From a virus (lineage: Duplodnaviria; Heunggongvirae; Uroviricota; Caudoviricetes), in IMG/VR virus record IMGVR_UViG_2563366933_000008: a stretch of 51,815 nucleotides of DNA; one strand, 5' to 3'. Positions 20,001 to 23,000 of the stretch are shown one piece after another (position 1 is the stretch's first letter; each line of letters starts with the position of its first letter). A program made the position numbers.

Positions 20001-23000
20001 TCTTTCCAGGTCTGGCATATAGGTATGTATGACTTGCCTGGAAGTTTTATTCATTCGTTTTTTCTTGCCAGCTCCATGCTCACTGATAATGGTTTAGCTA
20101 CGCAGGATTATGCAAACTGGCCCACGCACACGATAGTGTTTTTGCTGTTGTCAAGTTTCTTTGGGGGATGTATAGGTTCAACTTGTGGTGGAATTAAGTC
20201 ACTTCGATTTCTTATACTTTTCAAACAAAGCAAACACGAGATAAACCAGCTTTCTCATCCCAGAGCGTTGTTGAGTGTAAATGTAGGAGGGAAGATAGTT
20301 ACAGATCGTGTAATGAGGTCTGTATGGAGTTTCTTTTTTCTTTATACTCTCTTCACGGTGTTTTTTATACTGGTGTTAAATGGTATGGGATATGATTTTC
20401 TTACATCATTTGCAACAGTGGCTGCATGTATTAATAATATGGGATTAGGTTTTGGGGCTACTGCATCGTCATTCGGAGTGCTTAATGACATTGCAAAATA
20501 TTTAATGTGCATAGCTATGATTCTTGGTCGCCTTGAAATTTATCCTGTTATTATATTGTTTTCAGGTTTTTTTTGGCGCTCCTAATATATGGCTGATTTA
20601 TAATTGTGAGTTTAATATTATATTGACTCACTCATTGATCCAATACCTAACTTTACCAGCAACACCTCCGCCCCCAGTAGCACTGGCTGCTGGGGTGCGT
20701 TTTATTCATAAAGCAAGGCTGTATGAGCGAGAAATTGAAGATCGTCTATCGCCCTTTACAAGAACTGTCTCCGTATGCACACAACGCCAGGACACACAGC
20801 CCTGAGCAGGTGGCACAACTGGTAGAAAGCATTAAGCAATTCGGCTGGACTAATCCGGTGCTGATTGATGAAAAGGGCGAAATTATTGCTGGTCACGGTC
20901 GCGTTATGGCGGCTGAAGTGCTCAAAATGGATTCCATTCCGGTCATCGTTCTGTCTGGTTTGATGGATGATCAGAAAAAGGCGTACCGCCTGGCAGATAA
21001 TCGCCTGCCGATGAATGCTGGCTGGGATGAAGATCTGTTACGGATGGAGCTGTCGGACCTAATCAATGCTGATTTTGATGTCTCCCTGACAGGCTTCAGC
21101 CCGACAGAAATTGATGAACTGTTGACGGATGTTTTGCCCGGTACAGAAAATGAGGAGGAGCCGTATACGACGAAAATTGATACGCCTGTTTATGAGCCGT
21201 CGGGCGGTAAACCGGATATCAGTGAACTGTACGACGATACGAAAACTCAGGAGCTGATCAGCCGGATACGTTCGGCGTCTCTTGAGCCTGATATTGAGAA
21301 ATTCCTCCTGTGTGCGGCAGAACGTCACACGGTGTTTAATTTCAGCAGAATTGCGGACTATTACGCTCACGCCCCCGCTGAAATTCAGTGTTTTTTCGAG
21401 GAGTCGGCGCTGGTGATCATTGATTATCAGCAGGCTATTGAAAATGGATTTGTCCGGATGACGCAGCGCATGGTGGAGATCATGCATGGTGGTGAGGAGG
21501 AGGAATATGCGTGATGATTTTTGCGCCTTTATTCTGACTCACGGGCGACCGGACAAAGTTCTGACTTACCGGACGTTGCGTCGTGCTGGCTATACCGGGA
21601 AAATTTTTATCGTTGTTGATGATGAAGATAAGACACGGCATCAGTACATGGCTGAATTTGGTGAACAGGTGCTGGTGTTTTCCAAAGCCGATATCGCCAG
21701 TCGTTTTGACGAAGCCGATAATTTCGGTGACCGCCGCTCAATTTTTTACGCCCGTAATGCCTGTTTCGACCTAGCAAAACTGGTCGGGTGTAAATACTTC
21801 ATTCAGCTCGATGATGATTATCACGAGTTCCAGTTTCGGGTGGATCGCAACTATGACCAGGCCTATTTTCCGATAAGGAAACTGGATGCGATCCTTTCTG
21901 AAATGCTGGCGTACTACGAATCAATACCTGCTCTTTCCATCGCTATGTCGCAGGGCGGGGATTTTCTTGGTGACAATGGCGGCCATGCTTCGTGGGTGAA
22001 ACGCAAGGCAATGAACAGCTTTATCTGTTCGGTTGATCGACCGTTCTCATTCATGGGGCGCATTAACGAGGATGTGAATACGTACACGAATCTCGGTCGC
22101 TGTGGTGAATTGTTTATGACGATCGGTGCTGTCCAGTTAGGGCAGAAACAGACGCAGAAAAACAGCGGCGGAATGACCGAGCTGTATCTGGATTCCGGAA
22201 CCTACGTTAAAAGTTTTTACTCCGTCATGTATGCGCCGTCGTGCGTAAAAATCTCACTGATGGGTGCCAGCCATAAACGCATTCACCATCAGGTCACCTG
22301 GAACAACGCTGCAGTAAAAATCCTTCACGAAAAATACAGGAAGAAGACACCCTGCATATCAATAGGGGTGACAAATGATTCCGTATTCGAAAGTCGAGTC
22401 TCTGGCAGCGTGCCGGATGACTGCACAACAAATCGCTGACGTTCTGGATGTTGATCTGAACCGACTGAAAGAAAATCGGGAAGCAATGACAGATTTTTAT
22501 GCGGCCATCCGTAAGGGCAGAGCGAAAGGTGAAGCCGAGTTACGAGCGGCATTGTTTAAGCTTGCCAGAAAAGGGGATGCCTTTGCTCTGCGCGAACTAC
22601 TCAGGGTGGATAAAAATCAGGACTAACTGATGAGCAGACCGGACTGGGGGGCGTTGCAGCAGGAGTATATTGCTGAATACACCCGCTCCGGTATATCTCC
22701 GGTGGCATGGTGTGAAGCAAGGGGACTGAATTACGCAACAGCCCGTCGTTACATCAAAAAACCTCCGAAAAATGCGCAGACAGAAATGCGCAAAACTGCG
22801 CAAAAAAGTGCGCAGAAAAAATCTGCGCAGACTGCACAAAAGCGGAACGAAAAATCTCAGGAAAAAAAGCCAGTATTCGATGCGGGCCTGAATGAGGGCG
22901 ACGCGGAGGAATTTTCGTTCTGTCCCGATGAATTCGGCATTTCTGACCAGCAGGCTAAGTTTGCGATGCTTGTTGCTCAGGGGAAAAAGCCGACAGAGGC

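Follow-up and report, generated by a model that had tools for sequence, protein, structure and literature searches.

The TAGT family of glycosyltransferases was reportedly defined by Iyer and colleagues in 2013 (in NAR), and, to our knowledge, every known sugar modification of DNA begins from a base that has already been hydroxylated or hydroxymethylated. The family members characterized so far, namely the phage glycosyltransferases associated with TET proteins and the enzyme responsible for the second glucosylation step in phages T2 and T6, act on DNA bases (PMC13216743; bioRxiv 10.1101/2023.12.21.572611). In a 2026 survey, 288 of 753 TAGT-encoding phages carried "solitary" TAGTs of undefined function (PMC13216743). 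In this study, we have analyzed a member of this unexplained solitary group, a 310-amino-acid (310-aa) protein whose gene lies next to that of a ParB-like protein in the IMG/VR record IMGVR_UViG_2563366933_000008; this record, a stretch of 51,815 nucleotides (nt) that we call the window, corresponds to a Rac-like lambdoid prophage in Escherichia coli.

Experiments have shown that one subclass of phage thymine dioxygenases depends on ParB-like activators for its action on double-stranded DNA; these ParB-dependent dioxygenases carry a subclass-specific C-terminal extension (PMC13229309, PNAS 2026). ParB was also among the frequent neighbors of phage glycosyltransferases in an earlier mining study (bioRxiv 10.1101/2023.12.21.572611). 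Setting aside the paper of Iyer et al. (2013) that founded the TAGT family, we found in the literature no description of the reciprocal pairing, of the tyrosine motif and C-terminal domain of the partner, or of the short partner forms that are reported below.

Results

The two genes of the pair, and the parts of their products, are located in the window as follows.

20723 to 21514, plus strand: gene of the ParB-like partner, an intact open reading frame (ORF) for 263 aa with an isoelectric point (pI) of 4.46
20723 to 21127, plus strand: predicted ParB/Srx nucleotide-binding fold and helical hairpin of the partner (residues 1 to 135; from Pfam, AlphaFold2 (AF2), Foldseek, and conservation)
21164 to 21199, plus strand: invariant linear motif Y148-T-x-K-I-x-x-P155-x-Y157-x-P, located in a predicted disordered linker
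21218 to 21487, plus strand: C-terminal domain of the partner (residues ~166 to 255), the segment that co-occurs with the transferase
21507 to 22439, plus strand: gene of the TAGT-family GT-A glycosyltransferase, 310 aa from an ATG that is also the start chosen by PGAP (pI, 8.0)
21528 to 22172, plus strand: predicted catalytic GT-A domain of the transferase (residues 8 to 222; from Pfam, alignment, AF2, and Foldseek)
22173 to 22361, plus strand: conserved C-terminal extension of the transferase (residues 223 to 285, ...GTYVKSFY...RIHH..W...), outside the Pfam TAGT model

The ParB-like partner and the TAGT form an obligate two-gene module. We compared 83 related loci (designated L plus a number), 80 of which came from one genome per species and three from metagenomes; the loci were retrieved via conserved peptide patterns, so that very divergent relatives lie outside the sample, and their genes were called by a longest-ORF heuristic. 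Three of these TAGT-fetched loci begin inside or just 5' of the TAGT gene and are uninformative. All of the remaining 80 have a partner homologue 5' of the TAGT gene and on its strand, and in 76 it overlaps or abuts the TAGT start, overlaps of 4 to 40 nt being the rule. Two of the other four loci have a second TAGT in between (L138 and L150), and two have gaps of approximately 150 to 210 nt (L145 and L166). In the reverse test, 80 viral contigs were fetched by the C-terminal domain of the partner, with a distant short partner form as the lead sequence; a TAGT gene lies directly downstream in 79 of these contigs and 812 nt away in the last, where a methyltransferase-like ORF intervenes. The ParB-like gene is therefore an obligate partner and not an independent neighbor, a feature missed in the preliminary description of this locus, which had been made from the sequence alone.

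No third gene is conserved with the pair. All-against-all clustering of approximately 1,800 neighboring ORFs revealed no other family in more than 16 of the 83 loci, the recurrent families being terminases, SSB, VRR-NUC proteins, C5-methyltransferases (10 loci), and SNF2-N6/N4 methyltransferases (7 loci). The gene of the C5-cytosine DNA methyltransferase (~560 to 650 aa) precedes the pair by about 5 kb (e.g., L090:1156-3105) and is not found in the E. coli prophage. TAGT proteins with 40 to 60% identity are found in Proteobacteria, Bacteroidota, Firmicutes, Planctomycetota, Verrucomicrobiota, Spirochaetota, Acidobacteriota, and Actinomycetota, and the same level of identity extends to contigs binned as archaea and to Haloarcula virus HHTV-2. 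That this level of identity is kept from one bacterial phylum to another and in a haloarchaeal virus suggests that the substrate is universal.

The 310-aa protein matches the Pfam TAGT model (PF20691) with 121.5 bits (cutoff, 27.5) and an E value of 6e-35, its residues 8 to 222 covering profile positions 4 to 205 of 205. It also matches phrog_842 (E value, 9e-104) and has thousands of homologues at 40 to 100% identity (8,000 scored matches). NCBIfam has no model for it, PADLOC, with its known defense and antidefense families, gave no match, and no solved structure was detectable by sequence for the family. The AF2 model, built with 31 homologues, had a mean predicted local distance difference test score (pLDDT) of 69.7, with residues 1 to 150 mostly above 85 and residues 218 to 263 poorly predicted. 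When this model was compared with the PDB by use of Foldseek, only GT-A glycosyltransferases and related nucleotidyltransferases were retrieved (E values of approximately 1e-4), among them the glycosyltransferase domain of LH3, SpsA, glycogenin, GnT-I, and SunS/ThuS. Judged by this model, the fold of the transferase is GT-A, that of the nucleotide-diphospho-sugar transferases.

The invariant positions of the GT-A domain are R14, D38/D41, E69-D71-N72, R83-N84, D102-D103-D104-Y105, Q149-G151-D152, R166-K167, and N187-E188-D189. R14, D102-D103-D104-Y105, and N187-E188-D189 are invariant in 31 sequences; when paralogues and the archaeal virus member were added, D103, D104, E188, and D189 were still invariant, and R14 and D102 were kept in at least 90%. 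A signature of the form R...DDD...ED(Y/F) is known from phage DNA GT-A enzymes and from the base-J glucosyltransferase (bioRxiv 10.1101/2023.12.21.572611), and the set R14, D102-D104, and E188-D189 corresponds to it. Outside the Pfam model, residues 223 to 285 are among the most conserved of the transferase (GTYVKSFY, RIHH, and W265) and are poorly modelled when the protein is folded alone. The E. coli protein additionally has an acidic C-terminal tail of approximately 25 residues (region 22286 to 22439) that is absent in the ~288-aa homologues of other genera.

These results bear out the core of the preliminary description, which had placed a ParB-like gene and a 310-aa protein at 20723 to 22439, before the terminase, and had suspected in the 310-aa protein a nucleotide-sugar transferase fold with a DxD motif. 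Both genes are real, as the TAGT match and the thousands of homologues attest, and the fold agrees with TAGT membership, with the GT-A match of the N-terminal half of the AF2 model, and with the invariant signature; structure prediction of the 310-aa protein, the check that had been proposed, returned the GT-A matches in the PDB described above. The three segments that had been quoted are present, at residues 8 to 16 (FILTHGRPD), 33 to 41 (IFIVVDDED), and 100 to 108 (QLDDDYHEF), and they cover invariant residues, namely R14 in THGR, D38/D41 in VDDED, and D102-D104 and Y105 in LDDDY.

The partner matches Pfam ParB_N (PF02195) with 27.9 bits (cutoff, 26.3) and phrog_620 over its full length (E value, 3e-89). 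In its AF2 model (35 homologues; pLDDT, 68.1), a ParB/Srx fold at residues 1 to 95 is confidently predicted and is followed by a helical hairpin (residues 103 to 134), a disordered stretch (residues 136 to 159; pLDDT of <50), and a mixed alpha/beta C-terminal domain (residues 166 to 255). Foldseek matches were to Noc, ParB, PadC, KorB, and Srx (sulfiredoxin), with E values from 1e-6 to 1e-3, and also to SerK. Among 65 cross-phylum partners, N21 and G57 are kept in 100%, N93 in 98%, and R60 and S36 in 88%; D102 is also kept. By these comparisons, the N-terminal domain fits the ParB/Srx CTPase-fold class, including the arginine of GxxR and the Asn residues of the pocket, and binding of a nucleoside triphosphate (NTP) is predicted. 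Its closest relatives are the ParB regions of phage DNA methyltransferase fusions (PADLOC MTase_II, E value of 2e-38; phrog_498, E value of 2.5e-50). No helix-turn-helix (HTH) Pfam match was obtained for the partner, and it has no HTH DNA-binding domain. The word "nuclease" in the label of the ParB-like family is a historical name.

The strongest conservation in the partner is found in the linker motif and the C-terminal domain, not in the ParB domain. Y148, P155, and Y157 are present in 100% of the 65 cross-phylum partners and of 24 cluster representatives. The C-terminal domain belongs to no Pfam, NCBIfam, or PADLOC family; its own family comprises 1,189 representatives at 50% identity, in which it is always C-terminal, and the best 150 of these include no fusion of partner and transferase. 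Short partner forms of 130 to 145 aa, which start just 5' of the motif, occur in Vibrio phage pv27 and in L142, L158, and L160. The motif and the C-terminal domain are therefore taken to be the functional core, the ParB domain being frequent but dispensable. Both proteins of the pair are soluble, with no membrane segment or signal (maximum Kyte-Doolittle 19-mer values of 1.08 and 1.38).

The following elements adjoin the pair.

20672 to 20695, plus strand: strong terminator-like hairpin (10-bp stem with 7 GC pairs, plus a T-run) that closes the trkG moron
21495 to 21503, plus strand: Shine-Dalgarno-like AGGAGGAGG, 3 to 6 nt 5' of the transferase ATG and within the ParB-like coding sequence
22417 to 22626, plus strand: 69-aa ORF directly after the transferase (context only)
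22630 to 23724, plus strand: terminase small subunit TerS (Terminase_2)
23696 to 25006, plus strand: terminase large subunit TerL (Terminase_6N/6C)

The hairpin ends 27 nt 5' of the ParB-like start, and no convincing promoter was found between the two; with a hairpin upstream and no good promoter, the pair is probably read only via the antiterminated late transcript. The transferase ATG (21507) lies inside the ParB-like gene, whose TGA stop is at 21512 to 21514, giving an 8-nt overlap (21507 to 21514), and AGGAGGAGG doubles as the code for the EEEE tail of the ParB-like protein. The Shine-Dalgarno-like element and the overlap together suggest that the pair is translationally coupled. The last 23 nt of the transferase gene overlap the 69-aa ORF, for which NCBIfam has no model; an 83-aa reading of it (22375 to 22626), used as the query, matched part of the TerS PHROG phrog_309 and no Pfam family.

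The pair has a similar setting in other loci. Downstream sequence was sufficient in 65 loci; in at least 41 of these, the first large ORF to appear within 3 kb encodes a large terminase from one of at least four unrelated families (Terminase_6, Terminase_3, GpA, and TerL_ATPase); in 8 more it matches the RNase H domain of T7-type terminases, and in 4 it is a portal. The order resolvase ... ParB-like, TAGT, TerS, TerL, portal is also seen in Lactobacillus phage phi jlb1 and, at an identity of only 28%, in Porphyromonas phages. In a lytic Vibrio phage of 191 kb, the pair is surrounded by genes for a primase, an exonuclease, and a helicase, and in L158 it adjoins a beta-clamp gene. This context points to DNA metabolism or packaging and supports a DNA target.

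Some lineages have added further domains to the pair. A second, tandem TAGT is present in L142, L150, L252, and L138. A class I S-adenosylmethionine-dependent methyltransferase domain (Methyltransf_11/12/23/25) is fused to the second TAGT in L138 (3581 to 5275) and to the N terminus of the partner in L114 (189 to 1739) and lies between partner and TAGT in L176 (1509 to 2342). In a viral contig (L238:3665-5347), the partner is fused at its C terminus to His_Phos_1 and cytidylyltransferase-like domains directly before the TAGT gene, an arrangement that could serve as a scaffold for the synthesis of an unusual activated donor. From their domain assignments, these accretions look like functions in glycan extension, tailoring, and donor synthesis; they are of the kind present in known DNA-glycan hypermodification clusters and to that extent support a DNA target.

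In E. coli, annotation has obscured the pair. In strains N1420 and JNEC-KY178, PGAP records only the first 258 nt of the ParB-like gene, as "ynaK," a partial pseudogene missing its C terminus, and leaves positions 20981 to 21506 of the window unannotated (~526 coding nt, in which the conserved motif and the C-terminal domain are contained). The PGAP reference model for ynaK appears to be the truncated K-12 remnant: in K-12, the first 254 nt of the ParB-like gene remain (ynaK) and are fused directly to ydaY by a deletion that took the transferase, terminase, and head genes. Because this deletion puts ydaY directly after ynaK, the two names are easily confused, and the label "YdaY-like" given to the 310-aa protein in the preliminary description has to be dropped; BLASTP against YdaY gave an E value of 0.22, and the PGAP ydaY is a separate 119-aa gene (32529 to 32888) after the tail-tube gene. 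PGAP itself names the transferase "GREB1-related protein," and the PHROG-derived T-even name "beta-glucosyl-HMC-alpha-glucosyltransferase" is almost certainly a misnomer for this clade. Among 5,426 complete E. coli genomes, 1,566 gave some match to the pair, and in 889 (16%) at least 80% of it is present. In Shigella flexneri SFBU0723 (L087:9102-10008), the transferase is 99% identical to that of the window and the ParB-like gene is split into two ORFs (129 and 168 aa), so that this copy is probably frameshifted and in decay.

The gene order of the window is Rac-like: int/xis, recET, kil, sieB, the repressor gene, replication genes of the ydaSTUV type, Q-like genes, tRNAs, lysis genes, the trkG moron, the ParB-like/TAGT pair, TerS, TerL, portal, head, and tail genes. 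Over the 2.2 kb that surround the pair, the sequence is 100% identical to strain N1420. The trkG moron (19110 to 20585, plus strand; TrkH family, E value of 2e-143) is flanked by the lysis genes on one side and the ParB-like gene on the other, and the TTG start given in the ORF list is 18 codons upstream of the PGAP start. A second moron, in the early/nin region, encodes an epoxyqueuosine reductase of the QueH family (12623 to 13309, plus strand; Pfam E value of 2e-65). The usual epoxyqueuosine enzyme of E. coli is QueG. A near-identical, pair-bearing Rac-like prophage (L001) has a P-loop ATPase gene at the QueH position; a functional link between QueH and the pair through queuosine glycosylation was rejected, since QueH is absent from that prophage and does not recur with the pair. 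At the tail-fiber end of the prophage lies a cdtA-cdtB-cdtC operon (46918 to 49126, plus strand) for a cytolethal distending toxin (type IV according to PGAP; Pfam matches CDtoxinA, Exo_endo_phos, and CDtoxinA), with genes for an alpha/beta hydrolase (49196 to 50680, minus strand) and an omptin protease (50865 to 51815, minus strand) 3' of it.

Discussion

The explanation that we favor, with a probability of roughly 0.45, is that the pair is a ParB-assisted glycosyltransferase that modifies phage DNA late, before packaging. It is proposed because characterized TAGT members glycosylate bases in DNA and because the domain plan of the partner and the C-terminal extension of the enzyme are like those of the ParB-dependent thymine dioxygenases. 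The catalytic subunit would be the TAGT GT-A enzyme, with its nucleotide-sugar donor held via the DDD motif; the core of the partner would be the Tyr/Pro motif and the C-terminal domain, to which the ParB/Srx NTP-binding domain has been added in most lineages. It can be pictured that the two proteins are made in coupled fashion from the first genes of the late (packaging) operon and that the motif and C-terminal domain of the partner bind and activate the transferase, probably through its residues 223 to 285. Most likely, the partner would activate the enzyme or hold it on double-stranded phage DNA, and the NTP-binding domain, where present, could provide DNA- or NTP-dependent control. The genome would be glycosylated after replication and just before packaging and would then be protected from nucleases in the next host.

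Several observations weigh against this explanation. One is chemical: canonical DNA bases have no hydroxyl acceptor, and the annotation of this prophage includes no 5mYOX/TET enzyme, no thymidylate-synthase-like hydroxymethylase, and no DNA methyltransferase; likewise, no TET/JBP or thymidylate synthase family occurs within 8 to 10 kb of the pair in six loci with precomputed Pfam annotation. In these annotations the pair thus lacks the neighboring 5-methylpyrimidine dioxygenase (TET/JBP) after which the TAGT family is named, as well as a hydroxymethylase, and with neither an acceptor hydroxyl nor a hydroxylating enzyme, a DNA target requires chemistry unseen in the family. The partner is acidic and has no recognizable DNA-binding domain, and its most conserved feature is a disordered motif with two invariant tyrosines, which would fit a glycosyl acceptor or a docking peptide. 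A role as a sliding clamp cannot be the core function of the partner, because some lineages do without the ParB domain. The confidence of both AF2 models is only moderate. We found no paper on the function of the pair or of ynaK and no experimental datum for any member of the clade, and GREB1, an animal relative, has been reported to be a protein O-GlcNAc transferase (PMC7968844).

If the acceptor is DNA, then phage-made 5-hydroxymethylcytosine (5hmC) and 5-hydroxymethyluracil (5hmU) are excluded as substrates, and the chemistry would be unlike that of every characterized TAGT member. A more specific form of the ParB-assisted DNA glycosyltransferase, which we put forward tentatively and regard as doubtful, is that the sugar is placed directly on canonical, nonhydroxymethylated DNA, at an exocyclic amine or another position of the double strand, and that the ParB-like subunit enables this reaction, possibly by opening or holding the duplex.

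The main rival, although unlikely, is that the transferase glycosylates a protein. The simplest target would be Tyr148 and/or Tyr157 of its own partner, modified in a glycogenin-like or toxin-like O-Tyr reaction with the C-terminal domain for docking; virion or packaging proteins would come second. The invariance of Y148, P155, and Y157 in a disordered linker across phyla is consistent with such an acceptor, as are the minimal partner forms, which consist of the motif and the C-terminal domain. The fold matches include GT-A enzymes that glycosylate Tyr, Ser, and Cys (glycogenin and SunS/ThuS), the report on GREB1 points in the same direction (PMC7968844), and late expression beside structural genes would suit glycosylation of the virion. 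However, a glycosylated short partner without any other domain has no evident use, and there is no conserved external protein target, since the neighboring terminases, portals, and capsids come from unrelated families. Furthermore, the type of ParB domain and the precedent of 5mYOX and ParB indicate a nucleic acid, and the pair of the Vibrio phage lies among replication genes and not structural genes.

It is decidedly unlikely that the pair serves as a counterdefense enzyme and transfers its sugar to RNA (for example, to a tRNA nucleoside or a ribose 2'-OH), to a nucleotide, or to a small-molecule immune signal. ParB/Srx folds bind ATP, CTP, or GTP and include the small-molecule kinases SerK and Srx, in one lineage (L238) phosphatase and cytidylyltransferase-like domains are joined to the partner, and the prophage carries tRNA genes and the QueH moron; however, neither QueH nor the tRNA genes recur with the pair, L001 has no QueH, the transferase has no PADLOC match, and there is no precedent in the family.

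We consider it highly improbable that the transferase is a conventional TAGT acting on 5hmC or 5hmU, or on a sugar already there, made by enzymes encoded elsewhere, as the PHROG label implies. Family membership and the C5-cytosine methyltransferase about 5 kb upstream in about 10 of the 83 loci would speak for this. Nevertheless, a dioxygenase, a hydroxymethylase, or a first-step alpha- or beta-glucosyltransferase is annotated neither in the prophage nor within 10 kb of the pair in the six Pfam-annotated loci, the E. coli prophage has no annotated DNA methyltransferase, and we know of no 5hmC made by E. coli. When 50,697 phage records were searched with the transferase by tblastn (E value threshold, 1e-5), the 36 matches included no T-even phage. 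A second glucosylation of the T-even type was rejected on the same search and on the absence of a hydroxymethylase, an alpha-glucosyltransferase, or a beta-glucosyltransferase from the window.

Modification of a host surface glycan (O-antigen or teichoic acid) for superinfection exclusion, in the manner of prophage gtr or TarP enzymes, is hardly credible: the GT-A fold, the moron-rich location beside trkG, and the report of TarP as the top PDB match for related phage GT-A enzymes (bioRxiv 10.1101/2023.12.21.572611) would favor it, but neither protein has a membrane segment or signal, a terminator separates the pair from trkG and there is no evident promoter, strictly lytic Vibrio phages have the pair, and the pair is 40 to 60% identical in viruses of Gram-negative bacteria, Gram-positive bacteria, Bacteroidota, and haloarchaea, whose surfaces have nothing in common. 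The preliminary description had named DNA and surface glycans as candidate targets; from family and context, DNA is the better-supported of the two, and solubility and distribution across phyla speak against the other.

The interest of the pair lies in the fact that a bona fide member of a DNA-glycosyltransferase family is widespread in phages without the means of making a hydroxylated base and is tied to a partner of the ParB type. With DNA as the target, the pair would represent a new modification chemistry, a new antirestriction strategy of temperate phages, and a second class of enzymes controlled by a ParB fold, with relevance for nanopore and restriction artifacts in prophage-derived DNA and for DNA-labelling tools. 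Direct glycosylation of canonical DNA, if true, would amount to a new DNA modification class, encoded in approximately one-sixth of the E. coli genomes sequenced and by temperate phages that infect haloarchaea and most phyla of bacteria, and would account for hundreds of solitary TAGTs. If the target is instead the partner protein, the pair would be a new, self-contained viral protein-glycosylation module. In practical terms, PGAP misannotates an intact partner as a truncated ynaK pseudogene, and PHROG-based pipelines attach a T-even-specific name to the transferase.

The transferase is of the same Pfam family and fold, and has the same signature, as the phage GT-A enzymes associated with TET/5mYOX (Pyle et al., bioRxiv 10.1101/2023.12.21.572611 / Cell Rep 2024). 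Those enzymes, like the pair, are phage encoded and in some clusters include sequential glycosyltransferases, and they are post-replicative, as the pair would be; however, they adjoin a C5-methyltransferase and a dioxygenase that make 5hmC, for which the pair has no counterpart in the prophage and none recurring among the 83 loci. Unlike them, the TAGT clade of the pair has a conserved C-terminal extension of approximately 60 residues and an obligate ParB-like partner. The beta-glucosyl-HMC-alpha-glucosyltransferase of T2 and T6 is also of the same Pfam family (PMC13216743) and adds a second glucose to alpha-glucosyl-5hmC in phages in which all cytosine is replaced by 5hmC. More remote relatives in the same GT-A clade are JGT and GREB1, neither of which has a ParB-like partner; JGT requires JBP-made 5hmU, and GREB1 is a large eukaryotic protein.

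On the side of the partner, the partition ParB proteins (Spo0J, Noc, and KorB) share the fold of the N-terminal domain and the phosphate-binding arginine of GxxR. A partition role was rejected, as the partner has no HTH and no ParA-binding motif, the prophage has no parA, and the TIGR00180 score of 36 bits is below the cutoff of 58.45. The fusions of ParB with N6/N4 DNA methyltransferases in phages and plasmids provide the best match to the N-terminal domain and occupy the same slot before terminase; unlike them, the partner has no methyltransferase domain, and its effector is a separate glycosyltransferase gene, addressed via a dedicated C-terminal domain.

The closest parallel is 5mYOX176/ParB176. 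Pairs of 5mYOX and ParB are recognized by an adjacent gene that encodes a nucleotide-binding domain, a linker, and a C-terminal domain without a DNA-binding domain (PMC13229309), and such a gene adjoins the transferase here. The two systems share an adjacent, codirectional ParB-like gene, an NTP-binding domain, a disordered linker, a C-terminal domain, and the absence of an HTH, as well as the conserved N, R, S, and R residues that line the NTP pocket, a C-terminal extension of the enzyme, and a phage DNA-modification context. They differ in that 5mYOX176 is an Fe(II)/2-oxoglutarate-dependent dioxygenase and the enzyme of the pair is a glycosyltransferase, in that the linker is the most conserved part of our partner but the least critical in ParB176, and in that the ParB domain of our partner, unlike that of the dioxygenase pair, is dispensable in some lineages. 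Taken together, this comparison leads us to infer that the pair is a ParB-dependent enzyme pair of the DNA-modification type, in which a glycosyltransferase would be the enzyme.

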